This document shows positions 3,531 to 58,348 of a stretch of 64,000 nucleotides of DNA, one piece after another. The DNA comes from Patescibacteria group bacterium. Its GTDB lineage: Bacteria > Patescibacteriota > Minisyncoccia > Phycocordibacterales > UBA1550. The stretch is from the NCBI GenBank assembly GCA_038063615.1, contig JBBTUT010000003.1, positions 1,352 through 65,351 of the forward strand. Reading direction: 5' to 3'. The notes below the pieces were generated by a model, which did no database searches, was not told the origin of the DNA, and saw only the letters and a program-made list of their open reading frames with translations. The position numbers and the translations under genes are program-made. Position 1 is the first letter of the stretch, and every line of letters starts with the position of its first letter.

Positions 3531-4775
3531 TGGCAGACTCTCGGTTTTTCGGAACTTTTTCATCAGACCGTCGCAACCCTCGTCTCGGCTTTCGCTTGGT
3601 TCCCCTATTGGGGGCCGATATTTTTTGGGTATGTATTTTGGCATCAGTGGATGCACTTCGTGCAGGGGTACTTTATGTCGCGCACCAACTGGGTGCTCCT
3701 CGAGGTGAAAGTTCCCAAGGAAACTTTCAAATCACCGCTCGCTATGGAGATCGTGCTCAATGCGCTGTATCAAACAAGCGCGGGGAATTGGTACGATAAA
3801 ATGTGGAAAGGAAAAGTGAAAGATTATTTTTCCCTTGAAATGGTTTCTATCGACGGGCATATTAAGTTTTTCATTCGCGCCCCGGCACTTTATAAAAATG
3901 TCATTGAGGCCCAGCTCTATGGTCAGTACCCCGATGTAGAGATTTACGAGGTGCCGGACTATGTCCGCTATGTGGATTATCAAGGGAATGACGGAGACTG
4001 GAAAATTATTGCGGCCGAATACGGACTTACCAAGCCAGACCCATACCCGATAAAGACATATGTCGATTATGGTCTCGACAAAGATCCGAAAGAAGAATTT
4101 AAAATTGATCCGCTCACCTCTATCATTGAATACCTCGGCTCTGTCGGCAAAGGCGAGCAGATTTGGATCCAGATCATCGTGCAGGCGGCGGGGAATCGCT
4201 ACCATATTAAAGCAGGTAAAAAGGAGGGACAACTGGGGGATTGGAAGGATGAAGCAAAGGATATTGTAAAGAGTCTTACTACGAAAGAAAGTAAGGATAA
4301 GGATGGGAAAATGGTTATAGTATCTAAGGTACTGGAAATGACCGAAGGGGATCGCGATGTGGTCAAAGCTATCGAGCGGAGTACAGGCAAGCTTGGTTTT
4401 GATTGTGGTGTTCGCGCTATATACTTGTCTAAAAAGGATAAATACAATGTAAGCAATCTTCGGGCGCTCGGCGGACTTTTACGACCTTTTACCACAAACA
4501 ATTTAAACGGGTTCAAAACGGTAACTACGACCTTTGGCTGGAGTTATCCATGGCAGGATTATAAAGAGATGCGCCTAAACGCGAAGAGAAAGAAAATTTT
4601 CAAGGCGTACAAATATCGCTCGTGGTTTCATTTGCCGCGTAAGCTGAAGCCTTTCGTGCTCAATACCGAGGAGCTCGCGACCATCTATCACTTCCCCGGA
4701 GGTGTGGCTCAGACGCCGACATTTGGTCGTATCCCATCGCGCAAGTCAGAGGCGCCGGTCAATTTGCCAATATAG
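3531..4775 (+). CDS. Hypothetical membrane protein (two N-terminal TM helices plus large soluble domain)
   Basis: Long ORF. Start chosen at the first ATG after a GGTATGAT -10-like box; ORF track begins at TTG 3486. Hydrophobic N-terminus. No family recognised. Confidence 0.4.
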   Translation, partial: WQTLGFSELFHQTVATLVSAFAWFPYWGPIFFGYVFWHQWMHFVQGYFMSRTNWVLLEVKVPKETFKSPLAMEIVLNALYQTSAGNWYDKMWKGKVKDYFSLEMVSIDGHIKFFIRAPALYKNVIEAQLYGQYPDVEIYEVPDYVRYVDYQGNDGDWKIIAAEYGLTKPDPYPIKTYVDYGLDKDPKEEFKIDPLTSIIEYLGSVGKGEQIWIQIIVQAAGNRYHIKAGKKEGQLGDWKDEAKDIVKSLTTKESKDKDGKMVIVSKVLEMTEGDRDVVKAIERSTGKLGFDCGVRAIYLSKKDKYNVSNLRALGGLLRPFTTNNLNGFKTVTTTFGWSYPWQDYKEMRLNAKRKKIFKAYKYRSWFHLPRKLKPFVLNTEELATIYHFPGGVAQTPTFGRIPSRKSEAPVNLPI

Positions 4776-4778
4776 AGT

Positions 4779-4912
4779 TGAATGGGGAATGGGGAAGGGG
4801 GAATGAATATCGAATATCGAATGTTGAATATCGAATGTTGAATGTTGAATGTTGAATGTTGAATGTTGAATGTTGAATGTTGAATATCGAATGTTGAATG
4901 TTGAATGTTGAA
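4779..4912. repeat. Heptamer tandem repeat array (GAATGTT/GAATATC/GAATGGG units, about 17 copies)
   Basis: Direct reading: gaatggggaatgggg...gaatatcgaatgttgaatgttgaatgtt... Confidence 0.9.
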
Positions 4913-4915
4913 TTA

Positions 4916-4961
4916 GCAAAAACGCCTCCTATGTCCTATAGGACATAGGAGGCGTTTTTGC
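4916..4961. terminator. 46-nt perfect palindrome gcaaaaacgcctcctatgtcctataggacataggaggcgtttttgc
   Basis: Perfect inverted repeat with CTATAG centre, T-rich flank. Likely bidirectional intrinsic terminator. Confidence 0.7.
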
Positions 4962-5032: not shown

Positions 5033-6127
5033 ATGGAACAAACACTGGGAGAACAACCAACAGCGGACACTGCTACTGAATTAACAAATTCAGCAACGGG
5101 TCAGACGATTGACAAAGAAGAAGAGAAAGCAGTAGAGAAGCTTCCTCGGACGGCTTTTCTCGCATCGCTCGGCATCGAAAATCGTTCGGCGAAAATCGTG
5201 CTCACAGGCGCGCTCGGAATCGTATTTTTTGCCACGCTCATTTCGTTTCTTTTGATGCCGCCACGCGACTTTCCCAAAGATAAAACGATTACGGTCAGGA
5301 GCGGTGTTTCTCTCGGGCAGGTGTCGCTCCTCCTAAAAGATGAGCACCTTATTCGCTCGCGCACTCTTTTTGAACTCTGCTCAAGGGCTGTCGGCGGGGA
5401 CAAACCGATTCTCGCGGGACAATACTTGTTCAAAGATTCCGCTTACGCATGCACCATCGCAATGCGTATCGCGCGCGGTATTTCGGGTATACCGAGCGTA
5501 CGCGTGACTATTCCCGAGGGAATGTCAAACAAGGAAGTTGCCGTGGTCATTGCGAAACTGCTTCCCGGCTTTGACTCCGCTTTTTTCCTTGAAAACGCGC
5601 GACAAAAAGAGGGGTATCTTTTCCCTGACACTTATTTGCTTTCCACGAGCGTGAATACCGAGAAGATCGTGTCGATAATGAGCGCAAATTTTGAGAAAAA
5701 GATAGAATCATGGATCCCGATCATCGAGTCCTCGGGACGCTCTCTCCGCGATACCATTATTATGGCGTCCATCCTCGAAAAAGAAGCAACTACCGACGAA
5801 GACAAAGAGCTCGTTTCAGGCATCCTTTGGAAGCGCATCAAGATCGGAATGCCACTTCAGGTTGACGCGACATTCATGTATCTTTTTAATAAAAAGTCGA
5901 GTGATATTACGCAAGCGGATCTCCAAATGAAATCAGTGTACAATACCTATCGCAACAAAGGTCTGCCGGGCGGCCCCATCGGCAATCCGGGTATCGCTGC
6001 CATCCGCGCGGCCATCCGCCCAAAAGATTCTCCATACCTCTACTATCTCTCCGACGACAAAGGCGTGATGCACTATGCGAAAACTTTTGCCGAGCATGTG
6101 GTGAATAAGGGGAAGTACTTAAGATAG
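5033..6127 (+). CDS. mltG: Endolytic murein transglycosylase MltG (YceG family)
   Basis: N-terminal TM segment. YceG-like motifs (EGYLFPDTY, GLPxGPIxNPG, YLYYL). TGTTATAAT extended -10 box 7 nt upstream of the ATG. Confidence 0.8.
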   Translation: MEQTLGEQPTADTATELTNSATGQTIDKEEEKAVEKLPRTAFLASLGIENRSAKIVLTGALGIVFFATLISFLLMPPRDFPKDKTITVRSGVSLGQVSLLLKDEHLIRSRTLFELCSRAVGGDKPILAGQYLFKDSAYACTIAMRIARGISGIPSVRVTIPEGMSNKEVAVVIAKLLPGFDSAFFLENARQKEGYLFPDTYLLSTSVNTEKIVSIMSANFEKKIESWIPIIESSGRSLRDTIIMASILEKEATTDEDKELVSGILWKRIKIGMPLQVDATFMYLFNKKSSDITQADLQMKSVYNTYRNKGLPGGPIGNPGIAAIRAAIRPKDSPYLYYLSDDKGVMHYAKTFAEHVVNKGKYLR

Positions 6128-6210
6128 AATATCGAATATGGAATGTTGAATATGGAATGGGTGTGTTAACCCGTATTTATTCAATATTCAATATTCGATA
6201 TTCGATATTC
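6127..6210. repeat. Heptamer repeat hairpin: gaatatcgaatatggaatgttgaatatggaatgg ... tcaatattcaatattcgatattcgatattc
   Basis: Forward and reverse-complement copies of the same GAATATC/GAATGTT units flank a 20-nt spacer between mltG and mnmA. Confidence 0.8.
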
Positions 6211-14316: not shown

Positions 14317-14412
14317 TTTAACAAACAACAAACAACTGACAACTAACAACAAGCACGGGGGAGAAGGCATTGATTGTAGAGAGTAAGTCGTGAGTTGTAA
14401 GTCAAAAACACC

Positions 14413-16591: not shown

Positions 16592-16954
16592 ATGAAACAT
16601 CACAAGTCGATTCGAAAATTTGGACGAGACCACGCAGGACGCATTGCGCTCCTCCGCTCCCTCGCGCTTGCGCTCATTACGCGCGAGCACATTCAGACGA
16701 CCGAGGCGCGCGCCAAGGAACTCCGTCCATTCATCGAAAAGCTCGTGACTCATGGTCGCGTAGCCGACCTCGCATCTCGCCGTCTTATCATTTCTCGCTT
16801 GGGCGGTGTGGATGGCGAGAGCGGTGCGAAAAAGATCATCGAAGAGATCGCGCCTCGCTACAAAGAGCGTGCGGGCGGGTACACTCGTGTTTTGAAACTC
16901 CCTCGTCGTCAAGGGGATGCAAGCAAAATGGCAATTATTGAATTTGTGAATTAA
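16592..16954 (+). CDS. rplQ: 50S ribosomal protein L17
   Basis: MKHHKSIRKFGRDHAGRIALLRSLALALITREHIQTTEARAKELRP. Confidence 0.9.
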   Translation: MKHHKSIRKFGRDHAGRIALLRSLALALITREHIQTTEARAKELRPFIEKLVTHGRVADLASRRLIISRLGGVDGESGAKKIIEEIAPRYKERAGGYTRVLKLPRRQGDASKMAIIEFVN

Positions 16955-16956
16955 CA

Positions 16957-17004
16957 GACAACAGACAACAGACAACAGACAACAGACAACAGACAACAGA
17001 TACG
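16957..17004. repeat. (CAGACAA)x7 tandem heptamer followed by GTCGTAAGTCGTAAGTTGTAGGTTGTAAG (about 17020-17050)
   Basis: Direct reading. The two blocks are roughly complementary. Confidence 0.85.
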
Positions 17005-18140: not shown

Positions 18141-19202
18141 ATGGACGATAACGCACGAAAATTTGACCACCGAGTAAAAAACCCCGAGCCCCATATCGTG
18201 GCGCTTTTGGCAGCGATAGACGAAGCGCGCGGCGTTTTCCGCGTTGGCGTTCGTATGACCCCGCAGGCAATCAGCACCCTCCGAAGGTCGATACTGGTGA
18301 CATCGGCCGGCGCATCGACTCGTATTGAAGGGTCGAAACTTTCAGATGAGGAGGTAAAGAAGATTATGCAGGGGCTCTCGATCTCAAAGTTTGCCGATCG
18401 TGATTCCCAAGAAGTGCAGGGGTACCTTGAGACGCTCCAAAATGTTTTCGACAGTTTTCAAACATTAGCACTTCGAGAAAGTACCATCCAAGCACTCCAC
18501 AAAGAGCTTCTCAAGTATTCAACCAAAGACGATCTTCATAGAGGCGAGTACAAAAAGAAAGAAAACATCGTTGGTGTCTTCGGCGAAGACGGCAAAGTTG
18601 CACGCATCGTATTTGAAACTACTCTTGCATGGCAAACACCCGCAGAGATGACCGAGCTCGTAGAGTGGACGCACGAGGCACTCGAAAAGAAACGATTTCA
18701 TCCGCTGCTCATTATCGGCAATTTTCTTATAGAATTTCTCAAGATTCATCCATTTGAAGATGGCAACGGGCGCCTCTCTCGCGTACTCACCAATATGCTT
18801 CTTCTTCGATCTGGTTATACATTTGTGCAGTTCGTTTCGCATGAGCAACTTGTCGAGAAGCGCAAGGATGAATACTATCTCGCACTGCGTGAGTCCCAGA
18901 AAACATTTAAAACGGAGAGCGAATCGATCGCGCCGTGGCTCAATTTCTTTTTGTCTATCGTAAAAGAACAAGCAACCAAAGCACTGGCACTTGTGGACAA
19001 GGAGCATGAAGAAGGCTTGTCGCCGAAGCAAAACGAGGTGCTTCAATTCTTTGCGTCGGTACCCGAAGCAAGCCCCGCCGAAATTGCGGCCGCAACTGGT
19101 ATGATTATTGTCACAGTGAGAAAATCGCTCGAACGGCTTCTTGAGCTTGGGAAAGTGAAGCGCATCGGTCGCGGGAGAGGAACGCGGTATGTGAGGATTT
19201 AA
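18141..19202 (+). CDS. Fic/DOC family protein (AMPylase-type) with C-terminal winged-helix
   Basis: Canonical Fic motif HPFEDGNGRLSRVLTNMLL. Confidence 0.85.
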   Translation: MDDNARKFDHRVKNPEPHIVALLAAIDEARGVFRVGVRMTPQAISTLRRSILVTSAGASTRIEGSKLSDEEVKKIMQGLSISKFADRDSQEVQGYLETLQNVFDSFQTLALRESTIQALHKELLKYSTKDDLHRGEYKKKENIVGVFGEDGKVARIVFETTLAWQTPAEMTELVEWTHEALEKKRFHPLLIIGNFLIEFLKIHPFEDGNGRLSRVLTNMLLLRSGYTFVQFVSHEQLVEKRKDEYYLALRESQKTFKTESESIAPWLNFFLSIVKEQATKALALVDKEHEEGLSPKQNEVLQFFASVPEASPAEIAAATGMIIVTVRKSLERLLELGKVKRIGRGRGTRYVRI

Positions 19203-19294
19203 ATTTATGACATCATTTTGGGAATTTAGTATAGGGGATGAATGTGGGAATCCAGTAGTTCATTATTGGTTCAAAAAGTGGTAGGATTACAAAA

Positions 19295-20251
19295 ATGGAA
19301 AAGAAATCTTTAAATAAAAACTTGCACAAGGCAAGCGCTGAAAAGAAAGACGAGTTTTACACTCAACTCGCTGATGTTGAAAAGGAACTCAGGCACTACA
19401 AAGACCAATTTCGTGGTAAGGTGGTATTTTGTAATTGTGATGATCCAAGAGAAAGCAACTTTGTTAAATATTTCAGTACAAATTTTGAACATTTGGGGCT
19501 GAAGAAATTAATCGCAACGCATTACAAAGATGCAAATTTGTTTACAAGGGAGACACCATATAAACTAGTGTACGCTGGCGACAAGAACGGGAATCGCATG
19601 CCTGATACGGATGAGTTTATGACCGAAATGATCGGCACGGGCGATTTCCGTAGCGAGGAATGTATTGAATTACTCAAAGAAGCCGATATAGTAGTAACCA
19701 ACCCACCATTTTCTTTGTTTCGTGAGTATGTCGCACAGCTGATGGAATACAATAAAAAGTTTTTGATTCTTGGCAATCAGAATGCCATTACATACAAGGA
19801 TACATTTAAGCTTATTAAAGAAAACAAATTGTGGCTGGGTTATGACAATGGTGGCACAAAGTGGTTTCAGGTTCCTGTGGGCTATGACATACAAACCGAA
19901 TCGAGAATAAAAGTCGAAAATGGTATTAAGTTTTTCAGCATGGGTAGCATAGTATGGTTTACAAACCTAGACACCACAAAGCGCCATGAAAAATTAGTGC
20001 TTTACAAAAAATACACGCCTGAAGAATACCCTAATTACGATTACCAAGACATTATAGAGGTTTCAAAAGTAGCAGAAATACCATTTGACTACGATGGAAC
20101 GATGGCGGTCCCGAAAACTTTTATTGATAAATATAACCCAAAACAATTTGAGTTGTTGGGTTTTTTGAACGGTGGTGGCAAGGACGAGACAGTACTAAGT
20201 AAACATCCATTCGCGAGAATCTTAATAAGAAATAAGGAAATAAAAAAATAA
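19295..20251 (+). CDS. N6-adenine DNA methyltransferase (gamma-class, NPPF motif IV)
   Basis: DEFYTQ motif-X-like N-terminus. IVVTNPPFSLF catalytic motif. AT-rich (about 36% GC). Confidence 0.6.
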   Translation: MEKKSLNKNLHKASAEKKDEFYTQLADVEKELRHYKDQFRGKVVFCNCDDPRESNFVKYFSTNFEHLGLKKLIATHYKDANLFTRETPYKLVYAGDKNGNRMPDTDEFMTEMIGTGDFRSEECIELLKEADIVVTNPPFSLFREYVAQLMEYNKKFLILGNQNAITYKDTFKLIKENKLWLGYDNGGTKWFQVPVGYDIQTESRIKVENGIKFFSMGSIVWFTNLDTTKRHEKLVLYKKYTPEEYPNYDYQDIIEVSKVAEIPFDYDGTMAVPKTFIDKYNPKQFELLGFLNGGGKDETVLSKHPFARILIRNKEIKK

Positions 20252-20252
20252 C

Positions 20253-21344
20253 ATGAAAATTGAACTTCATCGAATTTCTGTGCGCGAAGTTATTGTCGGC
20301 TACAAGGATAGTGCTGAAGAGGGCGTTGTAGCTTATGGTGGCAAACTCGATATTCGCCCAAAATATCAACGCGAATTTGTTTATAACGGCAAACAGCGCG
20401 ACGCTGTTATTGAGACAATTAAAAATGGTTTTCCGCTCAATGTGATGTATTGGGTTAAAACCGATGAGGGCAATTACGAAGTTTTAGACGGACAGCAACG
20501 CACTATTAGCATAGGACAATATATAAATGGTGATTTCTCATTAAATAATTTCAATTTTCATAACTTGACGGATGAAGAGCAAAAACAAATTTTGGATTAT
20601 GAATTGATGATTTATTTCTGCGAGGGTAATGATAGGGAAAAATTGAACTGGTTCAAAATCATCAACATTGCTGGAGAGAAACTGACCGAACAAGAATTGC
20701 GCAATGCGGTATATACTGGCCCATGGCTTTCTGACGCAAAGCTTAAATTCAGTAAATCAAGCTGCGCGGCGTACCTTTTAGCACACGACGGCGGGCAGTT
20801 AGTGAGTGGATCTCCCATCCGTCAAGAATATTTGGAGACCGCGCTTTCGTGGATCAATGATGGCAAAATAGAAGATTACATGGCAAAGCATCAGCATGAC
20901 ACGAACGCCGATGAATTGTGGAACTATTTCCAAAATGTAATTGCATGGGTGCGAGCGACTTTTACGAATTACCGCCGAGAAATGAACAGTGTAAAGTGGG
21001 GCGAGCTGTACAACAAATTCAAAGACAAGAAACTGAATGCTGGCAAACTGGAAACCGAGATCAATGAGTTGATGCAAGACGAGGATGTGACGAAAAAATC
21101 CGGCATTTATCCGTATGTTTTGACGAGGCAGGAAAAATATCTTTCAATTCGCGCTTTTACCGAGAAGCAAAAGAGGGAAGTATACGAAAAACAAAAAGGC
21201 ATCTGCGTAAAATGCAAGAAACATTTTGGAATAGAAGAAATGGAAGCAGACCATATAACACCTTGGCATGAGGGAGGAAAAACAAATGCCAAAAATTGCC
21301 AAATGTTGTGTAAACAAGACAATCGCACCAAATCTGGAAAATAA
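20253..21344 (+). CDS. DUF262 (ParB/GmrSD-N-like, DGQQR motif) plus C-terminal HNH nuclease domain protein
   Basis: YEVLDGQQRTISI (DUF262). C-terminal CVKCKKH...ADHITPWHEGGKTNAKNCQMLCKQDN (HNH). Starts 2 nt after the methyltransferase stop. Confidence 0.75.
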   Translation: MKIELHRISVREVIVGYKDSAEEGVVAYGGKLDIRPKYQREFVYNGKQRDAVIETIKNGFPLNVMYWVKTDEGNYEVLDGQQRTISIGQYINGDFSLNNFNFHNLTDEEQKQILDYELMIYFCEGNDREKLNWFKIINIAGEKLTEQELRNAVYTGPWLSDAKLKFSKSSCAAYLLAHDGGQLVSGSPIRQEYLETALSWINDGKIEDYMAKHQHDTNADELWNYFQNVIAWVRATFTNYRREMNSVKWGELYNKFKDKKLNAGKLETEINELMQDEDVTKKSGIYPYVLTRQEKYLSIRAFTEKQKREVYEKQKGICVKCKKHFGIEEMEADHITPWHEGGKTNAKNCQMLCKQDNRTKSGK

Positions 21345-21390
21345 TATGACGAGTAGTCTTTTTGCAAAGGTAGAATATGAATTTTTGTCA

Positions 21391-21412
21391 TACTGGGTCA
21401 GGTACCCTTTCC
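21391..21412. repeat. REP-like element tactgggtcaggtaccctttcc
   Basis: Same GGTCAGGTACCCTTTCC core as the hairpins flanking the IS200-like transposase at 35024-35098. Confidence 0.6.
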
Positions 21413-21470
21413 TAAAATTGAATCCAAAAACTAAAATTAAAAATTTTGATGAGGCGGGGGCTGTGGTAGA

Positions 21471-22016
21471 ATGAAATGCATGAAGAATAACAGTGGTAAA
21501 ATTTCAAAGGAGAAGATTTTACCAAACATTGTTTTGAGGTATTATCATTCGCCACAGAAACGGAGTGATAATAAATTATCGGGAATTACTTGCGCCTTCT
21601 GTCTTGAAAAAAACATAATAAATATCGGCGGTGGTTTCCATGACAAAAAGGGTAAACCCCATCAGATTTGCGAAAAATGCGCGGTATGGCGATATCGAGA
21701 TGATAACGGGTTCCGTACTCTGTCCGCAGCAAAAGCGCGCCGCCGTAGAATATTTGATGTTGGGTATATATTTAACGAAATGGTGATTGATAGGTATATA
21801 AGCATAAAGGGTGTTAAAAATTACGATGCCTTACCCACTGGGGTTGCGGATGTGATTTTTATAGATGCTGCTAATCTTTACAACTATCTTTTTAGTAAGG
21901 AGGATAAAATTAGAATCGAAGAAATTGAGAGGCAGGATGAGATTGCGGACGAATTGCGAAAGAGGATTGAAATTATTGATTTCAAAAAATATTTTACCGA
22001 AAAAGGACTTTTGTGA
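21471..22016 (+). CDS. Hypothetical Cys4 zinc-ribbon protein
   Basis: CAFC...CEKC zinc-ribbon-like motifs. Preceded by TGTGGTAGAATGAAATG (-10-like TAGAAT abutting the ATG); first residues MKCM shared with ORF 24356. Confidence 0.45.
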   Translation: MKCMKNNSGKISKEKILPNIVLRYYHSPQKRSDNKLSGITCAFCLEKNIINIGGGFHDKKGKPHQICEKCAVWRYRDDNGFRTLSAAKARRRRIFDVGYIFNEMVIDRYISIKGVKNYDALPTGVADVIFIDAANLYNYLFSKEDKIRIEEIERQDEIADELRKRIEIIDFKKYFTEKGLL

Positions 22017-22063
22017 TGTAACTTGGTTTGACGATATGGCGTGGTACATGGTAGTATTGTTGC

Positions 22064-22192
22064 ATGAAACAGCAATTTACTGCAGTATATAAAAAGAGTG
22101 GAAAATGGTATCTTGGGTGGGTTGAGGAAATTTCCGGCGTGAATACACAAGGTCGTACACTTGCTGAAGCGCGCGAAAATCTTAATGAATAG
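22064..22192 (+). CDS. HicB-like (UPF0150) antitoxin-family small protein, possibly C-terminally truncated
   Basis: MKQQFTAVYKKSGKWYLGWVEEISGVNTQGRTLAEARENLNE fits the UPF0150/HicB consensus (...pGcvtqGetleEAlenl.ea). 42 aa, below the ORF-track cutoff. Stop immediately followed by a REP-like element. Confidence 0.5.
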   Translation: MKQQFTAVYKKSGKWYLGWVEEISGVNTQGRTLAEARENLNE

Positions 22193-22222
22193 GTGTCAGG
22201 TACCTTTGACTTGAATTTGAGC
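22191..22222. repeat. REP-like element aggtgtcaggtacctttgacttgaatttgagc
   Basis: Related to 24249-24290 and to the RAYT-flanking hairpins. Confidence 0.55.
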
Positions 22223-22253
22223 AGAATCTTCCCCGGCATGTTATAGTTGCTGT

Positions 22254-22517
22254 ATGGTAACTTTTACCAAACACGCGAAAGATAAGTTTGGAATTCTGAA
22301 AAAACATAAATTTTCAGTATCTGAGGAGCAGGTTTTGGCGACTGTTGCGATGCCTGACCTGATTGATCATTCTCGAATTCCGCTCTTGGTAGCTCAACGA
22401 AAAATTGACAGGAACCTTGTATTGAGGGTAGTATATAAGCAAGAAAGAGGAACCGTAAAGATAATCACATTTTATCCGGGGAAATCTAAACAATATAAAA
22501 ATGAAAACAAAAGATAA
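22254..22517 (+). CDS. DUF4258-like small protein (putative toxin component)
   Basis: FTKHAKDKF...SEEQV...RVVY...IITFYP pattern resembles DUF4258. Overlaps the next gene by 17 nt. Confidence 0.4.
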   Translation: MVTFTKHAKDKFGILKKHKFSVSEEQVLATVAMPDLIDHSRIPLLVAQRKIDRNLVLRVVYKQERGTVKIITFYPGKSKQYKNENKR

Positions 22518-22743
22518 AGCAAAAATTTCATACGAGCCGGAATCCGATGTTTTAATGTGGGAAATATCTGGCAGTTCTATCGATTATGCTAAAGAAATTG
22601 GCAATTTTGTAGTGCATTTTACAAAAAACAATGTACCCGTTTTGATCGAGATATTGGAGGCGAGTAAATTTTTGGCAAAGACAAAAAATGTCGTAGAGAA
22701 AGGGAGCAGTGTTTTTATAAAAAGACACGCTTTGGCGGTGTAG
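22501..22743 (+). CDS. DUF2283-like small protein (putative antitoxin partner of DUF4258)
   Basis: ISYEPESDVLMWEISGSSIDYAKEIGNFVVHFTKNNVPVLIEILEAS matches the DUF2283 consensus. Confidence 0.45.
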   Translation: MKTKDKAKISYEPESDVLMWEISGSSIDYAKEIGNFVVHFTKNNVPVLIEILEASKFLAKTKNVVEKGSSVFIKRHALAV

Positions 22744-22889
22744 ATTTTGCATAATTGGGACAGTCACGATTGTTTCGTAAATTATGTGGTGTAGTTTGGG
22801 TGCAAACTCAATGCAGGTTACTTTTGTAGCATTATAGTAGTCAATTTACTCAAGAGAGGTGGCGTTTTGTAAATCTCAAAGACGCAGGA

Positions 22890-24182
22890 TTAGCATAATT
22901 GCTCATACAGCTCGAGTTCCTCGCGCGGGTCGCTCCACTCGACTTCGTTGATATCAAATCGTGTTACATCAGAAAGCTCTTTGCGTACGGCATCATCCAC
23001 TTCATCAGGACCGTACCCCGCTTGCTCTGCCGTCCACCAGAGAGTCTCCTCATGTTCAGGATGTTTCTTGTCTTTGAGAATGTCCATTTTTTCATAGTAC
23101 CCAAAAAGTGCGCCGGAATCTTCGTATGGGCAACGATTCTTGCCTGCGAGAATATCCGGTACTTTCATACCATCAGTGCGTGGAAGTATTTTTTCAAGTG
23201 TGATCCTATGCCCCCAACCGTCTCCGAAGTCATACATATACCATACCGCGTCTTTTTCTTTTTTCAGAAAATCTGATATCCCCGTATTCCTTTCGTCGAG
23301 CGACGCCTTGTCAGAAAAAATTTCATCGTCCGGATGCGGAATCTTGATGCTTGTTGCGTCTCTGCTGGTATATGGCGAGCAATCAAAAAATTCATGCAAG
23401 TGATACCCGAACCACCCCATCGCGTCTTGAATGGCAACATGCAAATCAAAGAAAGAATATTCCTCAGGTACAATAATCCTGCGCCAAATGAGTGGCTTTG
23501 AGCCGGAAAGCTCTATTTTGAGTCGCAGAATATTATTGCCGGTAATATGCTTGGCGGGTTTTGCGTGCGCGACATCCGTTTGAGGAGCCATACTTTTTCT
23601 TCTTTGCTCCAATTGTTCTTCCACATGCCGCATTGTTTCTTCTGTCGCGAAAGCTTGCGCGAGTTTAGTCGCATCGCCACCTTCACCTTTTCTTATTAAC
23701 TCACACATCGCGCACCCACCACATCCTTCAAATTCGGAAGTAACGGAAAAATGGGGGGACCCCGATAACCACTCTTCGGCAATTTGACCCGCTTCGTCCG
23801 CGAGATATTGATGCCAGCCATGAACCCAGCCGTCAGTGTTTTCTTTCAGGTGTCTCTCCATGGCGCGCCAATTCCCTGAACTAAGCGCCTTCACTGCTCC
23901 GCGCGCTTCATCTCCAGATGCCATGACTGACAGAATATCAGCGATAAAGTCGCGCGCAATCTGGTCGCGATATTCGTCATTGAGATGCTCGACGAGAAAA
24001 TATTGTTTTGAGTTTCCAATTTTTATCACCCAGTCGTGTAAACCTTTTACTGAGGAAACCGCAACCAGTGTGCCAGTCTTTATGTCCAAGTATTGCTGCG
24101 GGTAATCCTCGGTGGCAAGAATCGCATCTACGACTGCCTCAATATCCACTCGAACTCGGTTGGGGAGATACCATGCGTCCAT
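22890..24182 (-). CDS. pRiA4b ORF-3-like domain protein (N-terminal UPF0158-like region)
   Basis: ILRLKIELSGSKPLIWRRIIVP ... FFDLHVAIQDAMGW ... YMYDFGDGWGHRITLE matches the PRiA4_ORF3 family pattern. Confidence 0.5.
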   Translation of the reverse strand: MDAWYLPNRVRVDIEAVVDAILATEDYPQQYLDIKTGTLVAVSSVKGLHDWVIKIGNSKQYFLVEHLNDEYRDQIARDFIADILSVMASGDEARGAVKALSSGNWRAMERHLKENTDGWVHGWHQYLADEAGQIAEEWLSGSPHFSVTSEFEGCGGCAMCELIRKGEGGDATKLAQAFATEETMRHVEEQLEQRRKSMAPQTDVAHAKPAKHITGNNILRLKIELSGSKPLIWRRIIVPEEYSFFDLHVAIQDAMGWFGYHLHEFFDCSPYTSRDATSIKIPHPDDEIFSDKASLDERNTGISDFLKKEKDAVWYMYDFGDGWGHRITLEKILPRTDGMKVPDILAGKNRCPYEDSGALFGYYEKMDILKDKKHPEHEETLWWTAEQAGYGPDEVDDAVRKELSDVTRFDINEVEWSDPREELELYEQLC

Positions 24183-24248
24183 AATGTTGATAGTATGCTC
24201 GTATCGTTCATAATAATCAAGGCTCTAGACTAGTTAACCTAGGGGGGA

Positions 24249-24290
24249 TAGGTGTCAGGAGATACTGGGTCAGAGACCTTTGACTCAAAA
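24249..24290. repeat. Composite REP-like element ataggtgtcaggagatactgggtcagagacctttgactcaaaac
   Basis: Contains both the aggtgtcagg (as at 22191) and gatactgggtcag (as at 21391) variants. Confidence 0.55.
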
Positions 24291-24295
24291 CTTCC

Positions 24296-24338
24296 AACGG
24301 CTCATTTCCGCCCATTTGAGCCGTTGGGGTTTTGTTGA
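24296..24338 (+). terminator. Hairpin caacggctca-tttccgcccattt-gagccgttgg plus ggttttgtt
   Basis: Perfect 10-nt stem plus U-tract. Confidence 0.55.
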
Positions 24339-24355
24339 GGTAAGTCTGTGGTAGA

Positions 24356-24544
24356 ATGAAATGTATGACAGAAGAAGAAATCGCGGTTAAACAACTATCG
24401 GAGGAATACGCAGGACTCTCTGATTTTTTATTGCGTGCGTCGTCTGATGAAAAGAAGAAAATAATCACTGAAGCGGCTCGTCGTGCGAACGAGGATCAGT
24501 TCGAGGTTTTTACTAAAGCAAGGCTTAAGATTGGGGCGAATTAG
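24356..24544 (+). CDS. Hypothetical small protein (62 aa)
   Basis: Preceded by TGTGGTAGAATGAAATG, identical to the module at 21460. Starts MKCM like ORF 21471. Followed by a conserved terminator-like element. Confidence 0.4.
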   Translation: MKCMTEEEIAVKQLSEEYAGLSDFLLRASSDEKKKIITEAARRANEDQFEVFTKARLKIGAN

Positions 24545-24617
24545 TGATATTGAGTGTTAGCCCCACACCCGCACAGACTAAGAATAGTATAATGATGTGC
24601 GGGCAAAAATAGGCAAA

Positions 24618-24680
24618 AGAAAAGGGCTCCTTAGGTAATTAGCCGTTCGGAACCCTTTTCGTCTGAATATACTCATACTA
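24618..24680. repeat. Conserved terminator-like element aaaagggctccttagg...ccgttcggaacccttttcgtctgaatatac (second copy at 53749-53815)
   Basis: About 60-nt similarity between the two copies, with aaaggg/cccttt stem. Confidence 0.65.
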
Positions 24681-24743
24681 CCAAAGGAGACGAGAAAGTC
24701 AAGTTTCACCTATTCGCTTGATGTGATAAGATAGAAGCACATT

Positions 24744-32997: not shown

Positions 32998-33039
32998 TTG
33001 GGAGGGGAAACAAACAACTGACAACTAACAATCGACAAT

Positions 33040-34817: not shown

Positions 34818-35023
34818 GTCTGCCTCCTTTTTAAGAACTATGAATTTTATTCTTCCCTAAAACTACTCTTAAATCACCAAAAAGTCAAAAGTTGCGGGTT
34901 CTGCTATAATGCGGTTTGTATGTCTGACCAAAACAAAACAGAGGCAAATTCACTCGATCAAAAAGAACAGATGAAAAAAGGTTTGCGCGCGGTATGGCGC
35001 CATGTGCGACCGTTTAAAAAAGG

Positions 35024-35798
35024 GGGAAAGGGGGTCAGGTACCCTTTCCCTTTACTTCTGGGGAAAGGGGGTCAGGTACCCTTTCCCTTTACTTCTGATA
35101 TACTAACCATATGCCTCGCATCACTCGTACCGACATCGGCAATCATTGCTATCATGTCATAAACCGTGCCAACGCGCGTATGCCGATTTTCTTCGCAGAA
35201 AAGGACTATGTTTTGTTTGAGCAAGTCCTAGAGGAAGCGCAAGAAAAGTTCTCTATGAGAATCCTCGCATACTGCCTCATGCCAAACCATTTTCACCTTG
35301 TGTTGTATCCAAAAAATGATGGTGACATGGGAAAATTCATGCAATGGCTCACGCTCACCCATACCCAGCGCTGGCATCAGGCGAACAATACGAAAGGAAG
35401 TGGGCATCTCTACCAAGGAAGGTACAAATCTTTTTTGATACAGGGCGACAACCATCTTCTCTCTGTTATTCGTTATGTCGAGCGAAACTCGCTTCGCGCA
35501 AAACTTGTTAGAAAAGCAGAGAACTGGGGTTTTTGTAGTTTAGCACGACGACTATCAATCAACACAAGAAAAAAGAAACTCTTGTCAGCATGGCCGATAC
35601 CGGAGCCAAGAGATTATCTCTCATTTGTTAGCACCCCGCAAACAAAAGAAGAGGAAGAAAGCATCAGAGGATCTGTCGTAAGAGGGAAGCCGTTTGGTGC
35701 AGATGCATGGGCTACAAAAATGATCGAGAAGTTTGGACTTGAAGCTACCGTGCGCTCGACAGGGAGACCCAAAAAGGGTACCTGACCCCCTTTTTCTC
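35024..35798 (+). mobile_element. IS200/IS605-like (RAYT-like) element: two tandem 38-nt left hairpins, a Y1 transposase gene, and an inverted right hairpin
   Basis: Left: gggaaagggggtcaggtaccctttccctttacttctg twice (35024-35098). Right: aaaaagggtacctgaccccctttttctc (35771-35798), inverted. Transposase stop TGA lies inside the right hairpin. Confidence 0.7.
35111..35785 (+). CDS. IS200-like / REP-associated tyrosine transposase (Y1 HUH)
   Basis: HUH motif in CLMPNHFHLVLYP. Transposase_17-like N-terminus (YHVINRANARMPIF). Confidence 0.7.
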   Translation: MPRITRTDIGNHCYHVINRANARMPIFFAEKDYVLFEQVLEEAQEKFSMRILAYCLMPNHFHLVLYPKNDGDMGKFMQWLTLTHTQRWHQANNTKGSGHLYQGRYKSFLIQGDNHLLSVIRYVERNSLRAKLVRKAENWGFCSLARRLSINTRKKKLLSAWPIPEPRDYLSFVSTPQTKEEEESIRGSVVRGKPFGADAWATKMIEKFGLEATVRSTGRPKKGT

Positions 35799-36467
35799 AA
35801 AAGAGCGATGCGCGGGGTTGATATTCTGCGTCAATATGATATCCACCCGGGGGTGATTTGTACTGTTACCAAGAAAACGGTGAAATATGCCGAAGAAATC
35901 CTTCATGGGTTGGTTTCTGCCGGTTTCAAAAACATCGCTTTCAACGCCTTTTATAACACGGCATCGGAAAGTGGCGGAGACGAGTATGGGTTATCGGATA
36001 AAGACTGGTACGGTTTCCTTAGAGAAATCTTTGAATCATGGCTGGAAATTAATGATGAAACGATTCGTGTGCGCGAGCTGGATGCTATACTGGCGTGGAC
36101 GCTAGGGAAGTCAACAAACGAATGTTCTTTCCGCGGAAGTTGCGATAAATGGTTTGCGATTGACCACGCAGGTGATGTTTACCCTTGTGAAAGGTTTGGG
36201 AAGAAAGTCAATTTTGGAAGTCTTGATTCTCTTGGGGTCTACGGAAATCTCATTATGAGTCAAACTTTTCTTGAGTGGAAAGATTCAATCCAAGTATTAC
36301 CGAGTAAATGCAGGGCTTGCACTTTTCTATCATTGTGTAACAATGGTTGTAGTAGTCATAGGCAAGCTGATGATCAAGGGGTGCCTCTTTATACCTATTG
36401 TGAAAGTCGGCTGGATTTCTATGGTTTTGTACAAAATCGGATAAAGAAAGGAGGTGAGACGCTATGA
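35733..36467 (+). pseudogene. Radical-SAM/SPASM maturase (anSME-like) C-terminal fragment; N-terminal Cx3Cx2C core missing, interrupted by the IS element
   Basis: Twitch/SPASM Cys clusters (CSFRGSCDKWFAIDHAGDVYPCERF; CRACTFLSLCNNGC) align with the C-terminal half of anSME-type enzymes. No CxxxCxxC. The frame enters from the IS right hairpin. A separate 35-codon ORF upstream of the IS (34921-35025) has its own TATAAT. Confidence 0.6.
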
Positions 36468-37724: not shown

Positions 37725-37967
37725 ATTCAGAATATTACTCTGTTGATGTGGATGTGTGTATAATTACTCGAAAAAAGCTTGACATTTTGTTCTTAGCGCG
37801 ATACTCTTTTGGTAGACAGTAGCGGATGCTTTGAGATTGGCTTGAGGTGACGCTAGGGTACTTTAAAAAGGGAGGTGATGCCACGCAACTTTGTAAGGTA
37901 TTAGGAGGTTCGGCTCGAGATTGGCTTGAGATGACTCCAAAGATTTCTTTAAAAAAGGAGATTTATT
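37725..37967 (+). promoter_or_regulatory. Promoter (TTGACA-N17-TACTCT) plus about 190-nt conserved 5' leader, copy A
   Basis: About 85% identical to 39200-39434. Contains two internal copies of GAGATTGGCTTGAG. Confidence 0.5.
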
Positions 37968-38189
37968 ATGAAAAAAAGTAAAAATGCTACACCCAGCCAT
38001 AACCCTTTTGCTTCTGAAGGGTTCAAACTATCTTCCTATACCCACAAATGCTGTTGCGTTGCGGTGCGTATAGGGGACACTGTGGACCTCCGTGACACCA
38101 AAAACCCAAATAGTCCCACGCTTTCTTTCAATAGGAAAGAGTGGAAGGCCTTTGTGAAAGGCGTGCAGTCCGGCGAGTTCAATGTCTGA
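37968..38189 (+). CDS. DUF397 (BldB-like) small protein, copy A
   Basis: FKLSSYTHKCCCVAVRIGDTVDLRDTKNPNSPTLSFNRKEWKAFVKGVQSGEFNV fits the DUF397 consensus (KSSYS..CVEVA...VRDSKDP.GP.L.F...EW.AF..GVK.GEFD). Confidence 0.55.
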   Translation: MKKSKNATPSHNPFASEGFKLSSYTHKCCCVAVRIGDTVDLRDTKNPNSPTLSFNRKEWKAFVKGVQSGEFNV

Positions 38190-38993: not shown

Positions 38994-38999
38994 AAGATA

Positions 39000-39050
39000 G
39001 CCGTGTTTTTTTGTTTTCTTTTTTTGTGCGGGGCGTGGTATGATTGGGGG
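39000..39050. repeat. 51-nt module gccgtgtttttttgttttctttttttgtgcggggcgtggtatgattggggg, duplicated exactly at 50127-50178
   Basis: Terminator tail plus GGCGTGGTATGAT extended -10 box. Identical copy upstream of the 50202 gene. Confidence 0.8.
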
Positions 39051-39199: not shown

Positions 39200-39434
39200 T
39201 CTTACTCTGTTGATGTGGAGGTGTGTGGGTAATTACTCGAAAAAAGCTTGACAGTTTGTTCGTGGTGGGATACTCTGTGGGTAGACGGTAGTGGATGCTT
39301 TGAGGTGGGCTCGAGGTGGCGCTAGTGTACTTTAAAAAGAAAGGAGGTGATGAAAAATTGATATTGATTGGGAGGTTCGACTCGAGATTGGCTTGAGACG
39401 ACTCCAAAGAGCTCTTTAAAAAAGGAGATTTGCC
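39200..39434 (+). promoter_or_regulatory. Promoter plus conserved 5' leader, copy B
   Basis: Paralogous to 37725-37967. Confidence 0.5.
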
Positions 39435-39623
39435 ATGAAAAAGAGTAAGAACACTCGTGTGAGCAAGAATGAGCGTGGTGATAAAGTTATCACTCTGTGT
39501 GGGGTCAGTAACTGTTGCCCTACGGTGACGATTGATAGGGGAGGCAACCATGTCATCAAAGATGACTTCGGAGGTTCAGTCGTACTATCTAAAGAGCAGT
39601 TCGGGATGCTCAAAGAGGTTTAA
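39435..39623 (+). CDS. DUF397-like small protein, copy B (divergent)
   Basis: MKKSKN start shared with copy A. VITLCGVSNCCPTVTIDRGGNHVIKDDFGGSVVLSKEQFGML resembles the DUF397 core. Confidence 0.4.
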   Translation: MKKSKNTRVSKNERGDKVITLCGVSNCCPTVTIDRGGNHVIKDDFGGSVVLSKEQFGMLKEV

Positions 39624-39680: not shown

Positions 39681-40682
39681 ATGAAAAAACAACATACAGA
39701 ACTTTTATTTGTTCAGATTACCCCTGAGTGTAATATGGGTTGTCGATATTGTCCTTTTTCTAACCAAAATAATCTTATAAATAGACAAAATAATTTTAGT
39801 GCGCAGATCAATTCAATCAAAAACACTTTTGACTCAAAATCTTTCACAGAGAGTTCTTTCGGTGAGTTAATTGTATATGGAGGAGAGGCGCTTCTTTACT
39901 TTGACCAAGTTAAAAGAATAATTAATGAATATAAAAATTTCCGACATTACGGAAAAATAACAGTATGCACTAACGGCATTCTTATTAATCAAGATGTCAT
40001 TACCTATTGTAAAACCAACAAGATAAATGTGACTATAAATATGGATGGGGATTTTAATTTAGTCGCAAGTAATAAATTTTTTTCTAAAACAGATTGGGCT
40101 AAACTCACTGGTAATATAAAAGGACTTCATTCAGAGGGAATACCATATGATTTCTCTACGACCATTACACCTCACTTTATTGAAAATTTTAATTCACAAG
40201 TAAAATTTTTAGAATCTTTGCACCCGAGAATGATAGGTTTTAATTTTTTGAGGGATACTCAAGCACAAAAAGAATTTGGAATAAGCAACCCTGATAATTA
40301 TTTGCAAGATGCTACTTCTTTGGTGTTTAAATATAACTCAGTTGTGAATTTTAATCGAAATAAAAAACTGAGAGCTTTTAAAGAGAAAAAACAGATTTCT
40401 GATTGTATATGTTCTGGGATGGGTATAACTATCCTCGCAACCGGTGAATATACGACATGCGGAATATTTCCATCTCAAAGATGCAGGACATCAAGAGAGG
40501 TAATCAGCATCATGAAGGAAAATTATAAAAAATTATTTTTAGACATAGAACTAGGACAAAACATAAAAGACTTACCAACTTTTGGAGGAGGTTGTTCAAA
40601 GCTCTTGCGAGAGGACAATAAAAGATTTTCTTATTATAATGCTTGGGTAAGTTTTGAACAGTTTAATTATGAAAAATTATAA
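39681..40682 (+). CDS. Radical SAM enzyme with C-terminal SPASM domain
   Basis: CNMGCRYC (Cx3Cx2C) at residues 17-24. C-terminal Cys clusters (CICSGMG...CGIFPSQRC...GGGC). Confidence 0.75.
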   Translation: MKKQHTELLFVQITPECNMGCRYCPFSNQNNLINRQNNFSAQINSIKNTFDSKSFTESSFGELIVYGGEALLYFDQVKRIINEYKNFRHYGKITVCTNGILINQDVITYCKTNKINVTINMDGDFNLVASNKFFSKTDWAKLTGNIKGLHSEGIPYDFSTTITPHFIENFNSQVKFLESLHPRMIGFNFLRDTQAQKEFGISNPDNYLQDATSLVFKYNSVVNFNRNKKLRAFKEKKQISDCICSGMGITILATGEYTTCGIFPSQRCRTSREVISIMKENYKKLFLDIELGQNIKDLPTFGGGCSKLLREDNKRFSYYNAWVSFEQFNYEKL

Positions 40683-50099: not shown

Positions 50100-50140
50100 T
50101 CTTTGTTTCCTTGCACGGCTATTGATTTTAAAATCAATAG
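50100..50140 (+). terminator. Hairpin acggctattgatttt-aaaatcaatagccgt plus U-tract, followed by the duplicated 51-nt module
   Basis: Perfect stem after lysS. Confidence 0.7.
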
Positions 50141-50201
50141 CCGTGTTTTTTTGTTTTCTTTTTTTGTGCGGGGCGTGGTATGATTGGGGGAACGGAACGA
50201 T

Positions 50202-53061: not shown

Positions 53062-53242
53062 TTTTGTGGATATGTTTTTTGCAAAATTATCGCCCGAACA
53101 TTTGTAAACAAATGTTTTAGAGGGAGGGGCAGTTAAATAGCCAATAGTGAATAGTCAATAATATTACGCGGCGACCCCTCTGTTTTTGTGTTTGGTGTGG
53201 TAGAATGATATGGAGGAAAAAGATTCTAGTATATATTGGTAT

Positions 53243-53764
53243 ACAAACATGTCTCAAGAAAAAAATTTAGCGTTTATTGACGGACAAAACTTACACCTAG
53301 GAACCACGCAAAATGGGTGGAAAGTTGATCATAATAAATTGAGAGTGTATTTGAAAGATAAGTATCATGTAACGGAAGCATATTATTTTTTGGGGTATGT
53401 CTCAGAAGAAGAACAAGACCTCTACAATAATCTGCAAAAAGCAGGATTCATTGTTTTGTTCAAGGAACACAACTCAAATCTGAAAGCAAAAAAGAAAGGG
53501 AATGTTGATACCGATATTGTGTTTGAAATAATGAAACACCTTGTTGACAATAAAGATTTTGACAAGTTTCTTTTGGTTTCTGGTGATGGTGATTATAAAA
53601 AGGTGGTTGATTATTTGATAAAGAAAAACAAATTTAGAAAGATCCTTTTCTCAAATAAAAAATTCGCTTCTTCTTTGTTTAAAAGCCTAGGATCTGAATT
53701 CTTCGATTACATGGAAAACTTCAAAACATACATAGAGTGGTCTAAAAAAGAAAAGGGCTCCTAA
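53243..53764 (+). CDS. NYN/LabA-like domain protein
   Basis: KNLAFIDGQNLHLGT, GNVDTDIV, LVSGDGDY motifs. An upstream in-frame ATG at 53210 follows a GGTAGAAT box. The stop lies inside the conserved terminator-like element. Confidence 0.7.
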   Translation, partial: TNMSQEKNLAFIDGQNLHLGTTQNGWKVDHNKLRVYLKDKYHVTEAYYFLGYVSEEEQDLYNNLQKAGFIVLFKEHNSNLKAKKKGNVDTDIVFEIMKHLVDNKDFDKFLLVSGDGDYKKVVDYLIKKNKFRKILFSNKKFASSLFKSLGSEFFDYMENFKTYIEWSKKEKGS

Positions 53765-53815
53765 GGCACTAACACCTTTCGGATCCCTTTTCGTCTGGAT
53801 ACACAGCCATTATAT
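53749..53815. repeat. Second copy of the terminator-like element (aaaagggctcctaagg...cggatcccttttcgtctggatacac)
   Basis: See 24618-24680. Confidence 0.65.
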
Positions 53816-53861
53816 AGTATCTGTAGTCGAAAAGTCAAGCGTTTTGTGTTATATTACTTTT

Positions 53862-57993: not shown

Positions 57994-58257
57994 ATGGGAT
58001 TTTTGGAAAGAATTATAAATAGAACAGAAAAGCTGATCAATCCGAAGCAACATTCGTTCGATATCAAGCAGTCGGCGCAGACAGAGCTCATACAAAAGGC
58101 GGGCGGAGATGATTTCGCGGGGACTTGGATCGATGCGAATGGAAGACGGTTTGAAGAGCTGGTAAATGACCCGAGGTACAACTTTATCGAACGACTGGGG
58201 GATGAGAAGACGCACGCCGAGGCGCTCAAAGAGATAGATAGTAAACTTTATCACTAA
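57994..58257 (+). CDS. Hypothetical small protein (87 aa)
   Basis: ORF only. Confidence 0.3.
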   Translation: MGFLERIINRTEKLINPKQHSFDIKQSAQTELIQKAGGDDFAGTWIDANGRRFEELVNDPRYNFIERLGDEKTHAEALKEIDSKLYH

Positions 58258-58263
58258 CGGGGA

Positions 58264-58314: not shown

Positions 58315-58348
58315 TACGCTAACTTTATTAACTTTACAAACTAAATTC

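Follow-up and report, generated by a model that had tools for sequence, protein, structure and literature searches.

A predicted small RNA gene opposite NYN nuclease genes and a promoter of leaderless layout in apparent gene cassettes of a Patescibacteria genome

Small RNAs that are encoded against a potentially harmful gene are known from type I toxin-antitoxin (TA) systems. In txpA/RatA and bsrG/SR4 of Bacillus subtilis, a small RNA with its own strong promoter is convergent with the gene of a small hydrophobic toxic peptide, overlaps its 3' end and shares a bidirectional terminator with it, and a genome may hold two paralogous pairs. In type III systems (ToxIN), a ribonuclease gene is coupled to a small structured RNA whose loops are possible protein contacts; ToxI consists of tandem repeats, is encoded on the toxN strand upstream of that gene and is processed by ToxN. 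The ctRNA of repABC plasmids (RF00489) is an antisense RNA of about 50 nucleotides (nt) with a single stem-loop that is also its terminator. In integron cassettes, an imperfect inverted repeat (attC) comes after each short gene unit; the cassettes are normally promoterless and depend on the promoter Pc next to intI. Here, we analysed a stretch of 64,000 nt, hereafter the window, from contig JBBTUT010000003.1 of a genome of the Patescibacteria or Candidate Phyla Radiation (CPR). An earlier note, made from the sequence alone, had seen promoter-gene-terminator cassettes in it, with a shared 5' module at the start of the genes and a shared 3' element at their end. We conclude that two unrelated features, a leaderless promoter and an antisense small RNA gene, have probably been read as one cassette. 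The best reading of the 3' element is that of an apparently undescribed small RNA gene of about 55 nt, predicted on the opposite strand.

The 3' element is indeed shared. The sequence AAAAGGGCTCC...CCCTTTTCGTCTG was found in the window only at 24620-24665 and 53751-53797, with 0 occurrences expected, and the complete hairpin element spans about 24615-24668 and 53744-53800. It folds into a hairpin of -21 to -22 kcal/mol (z -2.8 to -3.9), which was missed by a simple terminator scanner because its loop is longer than 8 nt. The similarity of the two copies runs about 45 nt further, to GAAA(A)GTCAAG, and the part of it that reads GAAAGTCAAG is the -35 box of a promoter on the minus strand. The hairpin has the geometry of a terminator, as had been claimed, but it appears to be a separate unit on the opposite strand that is linked to genes of NYN-domain proteins, and not the terminator of a cassette. 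Of the two genes said to end in the element, the NYN gene at 53243 has its stop codon TAA (53762-53764) within it, whereas the open reading frame (ORF) at 24356 ends at 24544, about 70 nt before it. The two loci contain the following features, scored where given with a covariance model (CM).

53243..53764, plus strand: gene of a NYN-domain (LabA-like, PIN-like fold) nuclease of 173 aa; Pfam PF01936, 8.7e-19
53744..53800, minus strand: predicted small RNA, class A; CM 78 bits on the minus strand versus 27 bits on the plus strand
53809..53838, minus strand: promoter of the class A small RNA, TTGACT, 18-nt spacer, TATAAT; 11/12 consensus positions, at a conserved position
53845..53855, plus strand: promoter of the DUF5674 gene, TGTGTTATATT, with a leaderless ATG at 53862; back to back with the small RNA promoter
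24615..24668, minus strand: predicted small RNA, class B, orphan, between the gene of a 59-aa protein and the grpE promoter; CM 82.7 bits on the minus strand
24675..24702, minus strand: promoter of the class B small RNA, TTGACT, 16-nt spacer, TGGTAGTAT (TGG-TAGTAT), at a conserved position
24722..24732, plus strand: grpE promoter TGTGATAAGAT, back to back with the small RNA promoter; kept in relatives without the small RNA

The class A small RNA is convergent with the NYN gene and overlaps its last ~21 nt and the 3' untranslated region (UTR). It begins with a 5' tail, continues with a long hairpin that contains a conserved internal loop, and ends in a U-tract. The NYN protein matches PF01936 with 68.9 bits (cut-off 24.2), and its nearest solved structure is 2QIP. 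In the NYN alignment D13, D89, D115 and D117 are invariant and D91 nearly so, and the nuclease is apparently active.

The distribution of the hairpin was analysed first with an exact pattern in one genome per species. It was found in 66 loci, each from a different species-representative genome, nearly all of them Patescibacteria of many classes. The genomes are labelled Paceibacterota, Moran-, Nomura-, Wolfe-, Andersen-, Uhr-, Berkel-, Jorgensen- and Komeilibacteria, plus metagenome-assembled genomes (MAGs) labelled Saccharibacteria; some of the MAG taxon labels are unreliable. At most of the 66 loci an ORF of 160-185 aa that is homologous to NYN ends in or just before the hairpin, with 42-74% identity to the NYN protein of the window and with the catalytic Asp residues kept. 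The bias of the pattern was then removed by sampling metagenome contigs by NYN protein similarity alone and scanning them with the CM built from the first set. The hairpin was detected in 77 of 80 loci, abutting the NYN stop on the opposite strand, and the other three contigs end at the gene. It is present, that is, in 77/77 loci with enough flank to be testable. A more distant NYN gene (L157, 3420-4525) has a different terminator hairpin on the sense strand and no convincing match to the small RNA (15.8 bits), which suggests that the antisense RNA is specific to one NYN subfamily. A homologue of a 178-aa protein of the window directly follows this distant gene and its terminator.

A stem-loop that contains GC pairs and is followed by a U-run can be drawn on both strands. 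The U-tract reads UUUUCUUUU(UU) on the minus strand and UUUU followed by CGUCUG on the plus strand. To assign the strand we used 71 NYN-sampled sequences, since the exact pattern allowed no variation in the stems of the 66 loci found with it and the covariation hence rests on the NYN-derived set. In the orientation antisense to NYN, helix 1 was canonically paired in 99.2% of cases. In 41 of its cells a G.U pair would turn into an A.C mismatch if read in the sense orientation, and 0 cells show the reverse. The apical pairs show the same wobble asymmetry (U.G 33, G.U 36), and in total 1005/1065 cells are canonical in the antisense and 939/1065 in the sense orientation. Covariation is clear at the pairs 21-53 (GC 40 / AU 30) and 25-49 (UA 46 / CG 20). 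Double changes were counted in ten pairs compared to 2.8 in shuffles (0/500), and the slid controls collapsed. Because wobble pairs and covariation both favour it, we place the RNA structure on the strand antisense to NYN. Two points weigh against this placement: the sequences are phylogenetically related to one another, and the NYN reading frame covers a part of the 3' arm, so that coding constraint could affect which of the two arms varies.

The same strand carries a promoter. Among 132 distinct loci a -10 box was found at a fixed position (T 108, A 118, A 83, T 96), and TTGAC with a spacer of 16-18 nt in 84/132. All but one of the loci (131/132) have an invariant A exactly 7 nt downstream of the -10 box. 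The hairpin follows and then, on the U-tract side of the RNA strand, UUUUCUUUUU. Within the hairpin, a conserved internal loop has GAA(C/A) opposite U(A/U)A plus an A.G mismatch, and the apical part occurs in two forms, GGUGUNAGUGCC in class A and GGYUAAYUACC in class B. The promoter, the fixed A, the covariation on the minus strand and the U-tract are those of an independent small RNA gene, whose expression is predicted. Compared by eye, the K-turn, loop E, domain IV of the signal recognition particle RNA, the tRNA T-arm, CIRCE and a mimicry of the 16S anti-Shine-Dalgarno sequence did not fit the conserved loop convincingly.

The hairpin could instead be only a structure of the sense strand, an intrinsic terminator or a regulatory 3'-UTR hairpin in the NYN mRNA, for instance a target through which NYN regulates itself, with no antisense RNA. 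Its position at the NYN stop codon and the TTTT that follows on the sense strand would fit, and Regnase-type NYN/PIN nucleases target 3'-UTR stem-loops. However, the 41-to-0 wobble asymmetry of helix 1 favours the antisense strand, where the U-tract is also longer and where the consensus promoter and the invariant start-site A lie at a fixed distance, and orphan copies without NYN keep promoter and hairpin. We regard a purely sense-strand hairpin as improbable.

The orphan class B copy of the window has one of the best CM scores and has kept its promoter. A tblastn search beside it revealed no NYN remnant or pseudogene; only an A-rich tail of ~25 nt resembles a NYN 3' end. The small RNA is missing from relatives that share the rpsI...grpE layout and the grpE promoter. 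In roughly a dozen of 65 species-representative loci the RNA has no adjacent NYN gene. In three of these loci the convergent gene whose end lies in the hairpin codes for Abi_2 (L008) or Bro-N (L006, L010), and other orphan RNAs adjoin genes for Fic, HicB-like, PRiA4 or methyltransferase proteins. The genes of L006, L008 and L010 keep the last few NYN-like codons (..KRAP / ..EKGS).

Such neighbours would be explained, together with the orphans themselves, if genomic islands preferentially integrated at the 3' end of the small RNA gene, in the way that tRNA and tmRNA genes serve as hot spots. The orphans do abut Abi_2, Bro-N, Fic, HicB-like, PRiA4 and methyltransferase genes, and the island of the window at 18.1-24.6 kb faces the 3' end of the RNA. 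Against an integration site, no integrase and no partial direct repeat of the 3' half of the RNA were found in the window, and in relatives the same rpsI-grpE gap holds islands even though the RNA is missing. A hot spot is quite unlikely for these reasons. Searches of the window for att-like partial repeats of the hairpin and for tRNA or tmRNA genes gave no match, nor did a blastn search with RNA and promoter against a phage collection.

In the antisense small RNA gene that we prefer, a -35/-10 promoter would be followed by the invariant A as the start, a tail of ~8 nt, a hairpin of ~43 nt and the U-tract. The RNA would be convergent with the NYN gene, overlap its last codons and end at a bidirectional terminator common to both. 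The pair recurs across CPR classes, and this genome holds one full pair (53.2-53.8 kb) and one orphan RNA upstream of grpE. The RNA would act as a cis-antisense, antitoxin-like regulator or as RNA partner of the NYN nuclease, either by pairing with the 3' end of the NYN mRNA or by binding the protein via the conserved internal loop. Antisense or antitoxin-like control of NYN is a tentative candidate, an RNA-protein partnership of another kind is somewhat unlikely, and the remaining probability falls to some other role. Between the small RNA and the NYN 5' UTR, only A/U-rich 6-7-mers were complementary and were judged not significant.

When compared with the type I TA systems, the locus shows the same convergent small RNA with its own promoter, the antisense overlap and the shared terminator, and a second pair per genome is represented by the two copies in the window and by a Hainich contig (L113) with two NYN paralogues that each have their own RNA. 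In contrast to these systems, the partner is a soluble NYN-domain protein of 173 aa, the overlap is confined to the terminator and ~20 nt of coding sequence, the RNA is conserved across the classes of a superphylum and the pair is near-universal, not patchy. ToxIN shares the coupling of a ribonuclease gene to a small structured RNA, but here a single hairpin lies on the opposite strand at the 3' end of the gene. The ctRNA is the best Rfam match (ctRNA_p42d, minus strand) with 28.2 and 15.8 bits, below the gathering threshold of 50. The likeness is limited to the A-rich/U-rich stem and the U-tail, and rep genes are absent from the context. No family of Rfam 15 was detected in the whole window at gathering thresholds, and in the E-value mode only the sub-threshold ctRNA match and noise appeared.

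The neighbourhoods in defence islands, the swapping of effectors at orphan loci and the coexisting paralogous pairs give the system a TA or defence flavour. Several observations weigh against a TA or antisense function. The distribution is near-universal and apparently vertical, the primary sequence of the RNA is conserved far beyond the needs of a pure antisense regulator, and orphan copies, about 15-20% of all copies, persist without a cis target. The excess conservation and the orphans imply that a cis-antisense function as proposed would be incomplete. We propose, with a confidence a little short of even, that the hairpin represents an unrecognised, CPR-wide family of small RNAs that forms an obligate functional pair with the NYN ribonuclease and whose locus nucleates defence islands. 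If this is true, the pair is either a housekeeping ribonucleoprotein or a new type of RNA antitoxin with a nuclease toxin, and its RNA survives as an orphan or beside swapped effectors (Abi_2, Bro-N).

The Patescibacteria or CPR make up a large share of bacterial diversity, and to our knowledge almost nothing is known about their regulatory RNAs. A near-invariant RNA of ~55 nt with its own consensus promoter and a 77/77 association with a nuclease gene may offer a tractable entry. It should be easy to detect in metatranscriptomes and testable with purified NYN protein. Literature searches for a description of this small RNA, for CPR small RNAs and for NYN proteins in CPR returned nothing relevant.

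The 5' module is also genuinely shared. The 17-mer TGTGGTAGAATGAAATG occurs exactly at 21462-21478 and 24347-24363, displaced by 2-4 nt from where the earlier note had put it, and with one mismatch at 53196-53212. These 3 matches (at most 1 mismatch) in the window compare to 0.18 expected, and 0/100 shuffles reached 3. The modules and the two small genes behind them are:

21462..21478, plus strand: 5' module copy 1, TGTG-G-TAGAAT with the discriminator GAAATG; the ATG at 21471 overlaps the -10 box and is not the start
21480..22016, plus strand: coding sequence of a 178-aa protein, function unassigned, with a leaderless start 7 nt past the -10 box; identical to the NCBI protein P0020
24347..24363, plus strand: 5' module copy 2, the same extended -10 promoter, kept upstream of the orthologue in the related locus L156
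24365..24544, plus strand: coding sequence of a 59-aa protein; its homologue P0004 starts MTDEEI
53196..53212, plus strand: 5' module variant TGTGGTAGAATGATATG, promoter of the NYN gene, ~30 nt upstream of the NYN start

At all three sites TGTG-G-TAGAAT has a TG (TRTG) directly upstream of a TAnnnT hexamer, the hallmark of an extended -10 promoter of sigma-70. This promoter, TGTGGTAGAAT, is located 7 nt upstream of the actual start codons of the two small genes (21480; 24365). TGGTA is the most frequent form among 22 gene-proximal boxes. The discriminator GAAATGTA recurs at a promoter without a nearby ORF start (43338). The promoter at 53196 lies ~30 nt before the NYN start, placed with the N-termini of NYN homologues, so the NYN mRNA would be leadered.

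The position of the -10 box relative to the start codon was examined more widely. In the window, TGNTANNNT ends 6-7 nt before the ATG of 10 genes and 9-11 nt before that of six further genes. In 146 other CPR loci (775 kb), the spacing to the ATG of ORFs of at least 80 aa was 6 nt in 67 cases, 7 nt in 29, 8 nt in 22, 9 nt in 28 and 10 nt in 19, over a background of ~5. The earlier note had taken TAGAAT as a -10 box abutting the start of a leaderless mRNA, and these spacing statistics make this the best reading. The 5' module would thus be the lineage's usual extended -10 (TRTGn-type) sigma-70 promoter, placed almost on the start codon, and the comparison indicates that the leaderless layout is the norm for operon-first genes in this Patescibacteria/CPR lineage. 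The note had also held that its cassettes would fall if the module were just the common promoter consensus. This applies to the architecture with the -10 box 6-7 nt before the ATG, but not to the exact 17-mer, which is rare elsewhere; the exact 11-mer TGTGGTAGAAT was found once in the 775 kb of other CPR DNA compared to 3 times in the window. In related species (L156, L161), the exact module has been kept in front of the orthologues of the two small genes. By this comparison, the exact 17-mer is a local promoter variant of this genome and its close relatives, common to a few TA/defence-island genes and their orthologues.

Leaderless promoters of the extended -10 type (TGn, or the TRTGn '-16 region' of Gram-positives) are known from Actinobacteria and Deinococcus-Thermus. 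They have the same TGTGnTAnnAT box with a weak or absent -35 box and the same ATG 6-8 nt past the -10 box, and their AUG-first transcripts are a genome-wide habit. The host here differs in belonging to the CPR/Patescibacteria, and the start sites are placed by sequence only. Literature searches for leaderless initiation or translation in Patescibacteria/CPR found no relevant description.

Both mechanical ORFs (21471; 24356) read MKCM at their beginning, as had been described, but this is not the true N-terminus. Their first ATG overlaps the -10 hexamer and would therefore be absent from any transcript made by that promoter. The next in-frame ATG (21480; 24365) begins 7 nt past the hexamer, and its A is the eighth base, within the usual range of start sites. 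This is the leaderless geometry, with a spacing of 7 for the 178-aa as well as the 59-aa gene and with the transcription start itself predicted. The NCBI protein P0020 is 100% identical to the 181-aa ORF, yet it is annotated with 178 aa from M4, beginning MKNNSG, and all 20 homologues of the ORF align from M4. Since homologues and annotation start at the fourth codon, we interpret MKCM as an over-extension of the ORFs into promoter and discriminator DNA, with the real starts at codon four. Transcription would begin at the A of the ATG 7-8 nt downstream of the -10 box and give leaderless mRNAs for both proteins. Two points tell against this. The start sites were placed by the E. coli-type distance from -10 to +1. 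Moreover, copies and orthologues differ in their 'MKC' codons by three substitutions (AAA/AAG, TGC/TGT), none of which changes the amino acid, and this leaves some room for translation from the upstream ATG. Gene callers extend ORFs too far into the -10 box, and a box located 6-7 nt ahead of an ATG may be used to correct start codons and operon boundaries in CPR genomes.

Short repeats resembling repetitive extragenic palindromic (REP) sequences precede the promoters in this region. In REP systems, a Y1 transposase gene (REP-associated tyrosine transposase, RAYT) lies between inverted short palindromic repeats that are also scattered between genes. A similar arrangement was found in the window:

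21395..21410, plus strand: REP-like repeat GGGTCAGGTACCCTTT, ~50 nt upstream of 5' module copy 1; repeat family D7
22193..22208, plus strand: degenerate REP-like repeat upstream of the promoter of an 87-aa/DUF2283 gene pair
24267..24282, plus strand: degenerate REP-like repeat, ~65 nt upstream of 5' module copy 2; repeat family D7
35111..35785, plus strand: RAYT-like gene, with the REP 16-mer at 35032 and 35069 (plus strand) and 35773 (minus strand)

The flanks of the RAYT-like gene (35023-35800) thus hold two direct and one inverted copy of GGGTCAGGTACCCTTT. Its protein scores 71.6 bits with NCBIfam REP_Tyr_transpos, just under the cut-off of 80, and 18.9 with IS200. The host is a CPR bacterium and only ~7 repeat copies are visible in 64 kb, unlike the known systems. 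The repeat is also present in the close relative L156 and absent from 152 other loci, nearly all other CPR genomes, and a REP/RAYT system seems unusual in a CPR genome. In the island at 21.4-24.5 kb, several small units have the order REP-like repeat, extended -10 promoter, leaderless ATG.

This order raises the possibility that the 5' module is a part of a portable unit of REP and promoter that is spread in TA/defence islands by RAYT or homologous recombination, which would be compatible with the two-feature explanation. The REP 16-mer lies 50-80 nt upstream of both exact module copies and of a third promoter, the RAYT-like gene lies between such REPs, and REP, TTTTGA-AGG, a 6-nt spacer and CTGTG-TAGAATGAARTGYATG follow each other in the same order before the L156/L161 orthologues, where the REP-like repeat reads GGGTCAGGTACC or GGGTCAAGTACC. 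A second promoter family of this genome is likewise identical over up to 54 nt between copies. On the other hand, the spacers between REP and promoter vary in length and sequence, the copy at 53196 has no REP, only 3 copies can be examined, and conservation at orthologous sites points to vertical inheritance and not to mobility. We consider a portable unit rather unlikely.

The second promoter family, GGGGCGTGGTATRATTG, includes an identical 54-nt segment (terminator tail plus promoter GGGGCGTGGTATGATTGGGGG) that occurs twice, at 38997-39050 and 50137-50190, with related promoters at 37627, 43317 and 54535. Repeated promoter segments therefore appear to be a habit of this genome.

The mobile cassettes of the earlier note, integron-like or other, would have the 5' module and the 3' element as the ends of a transposable or recombining unit. 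The identical 17-mer at two genes and the same element after two genes agree with this, as do REP-like repeats at unit boundaries in the island and the different genes (Abi_2, Bro-N) that end inside the same hairpin in other genomes. Both modules, however, are present on one gene only (24365-24544), whose orthologues, 62-aa genes in L156 and L151, have no hairpin. The gene at 21471 is without the 3' element, and more distant homologues of the 181-aa gene (L157, L159) differ in both promoter and neighbourhood. The hairpin occurs in one or two copies per genome and follows the NYN gene at its testable loci, and no partial repeat of the element was seen elsewhere in the window. Integron cassettes differ further, as the units here have their own extended -10 promoters. 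No attC-like RYYYAAC/GTTRRRY (R'/R'') core was found, the nearest sequence being GTTCGGA, and the conserved positions are explained by the RNA hairpin of the opposite strand. Neither intI nor another integrase or recombinase was seen among the proteins of the 18.1-24.7 kb island. Mobile cassettes are thus very improbable, and the apparent cassettes of this region should not be annotated as mobile elements.

The window has 44.5% GC and nearly all of its genes on the plus strand, and contigs identical to it come from Hainich groundwater metagenomes and a Patescibacteria MAG. Its segment of 18.1-24.7 kb (18141-24700), between rpsI and grpE-dnaK-dnaJ, is a TA/defence island with genes for a SoFic-like Fic protein, a type II methyltransferase with a GmrSD/HNH restriction enzyme, the 178-aa protein, a HicB fragment, the 87-aa/DUF2283 pair, PRiA4_ORF3 and the small 59/62-aa protein. 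The rpsI-grpE gap is variable as a TA/defence island in the window, L151 and L153. The 178-aa protein had no match in Pfam, NCBIfam or PADLOC.

The 59/62-aa protein is probably an antitoxin or adaptor, an antitoxin-like partner, because the genes of its family normally follow, with an overlap of 4 nt, a gene for a Zeta toxin (L151) or a Fic protein (L153). In the window, no toxin gene adjoins the 59-aa gene, its N-terminal region is replaced and it has a new leaderless 5' end. Upstream of it lies a hairpin AACGGCTCATTTCCGCCCATTTGAGCCGTT (24295-24330) whose reverse complement is found downstream of the L151 orthologue (4213-4245), and this inverted placement hints at a local inversion or rearrangement. 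The HicB/UPF0150 fragment has 42 aa (22064-22192; Pfam 25.7 bits, cut-off 27.3), and its 3' end lies exactly at the start of a REP-like repeat, which suggests truncation via rearrangement at the repeat.

Tandem heptamer arrays of the types (T/C)GAAT(A/G)T and ACAAC(A/T)G were found in intergenic regions after several genes (4790-4927, 6105-6179, 58251-58325; 14320-14349, 16953-16996, 33002-33031). A duplication of ~230 nt (37753-37984 and 39222-39451, 84-88% identity) carries a Shine-Dalgarno sequence and a small Cys-rich ORF (..KCCCVAV..). It adjoins genes that by eye are of the radical-SAM/SPASM type (35733-36467; 39681-40682), one of them apparently truncated beside the RAYT gene, and may be a locus for ribosomally synthesised and post-translationally modified peptides. 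The genes of this region use Shine-Dalgarno sequences, unlike most genes of the window.

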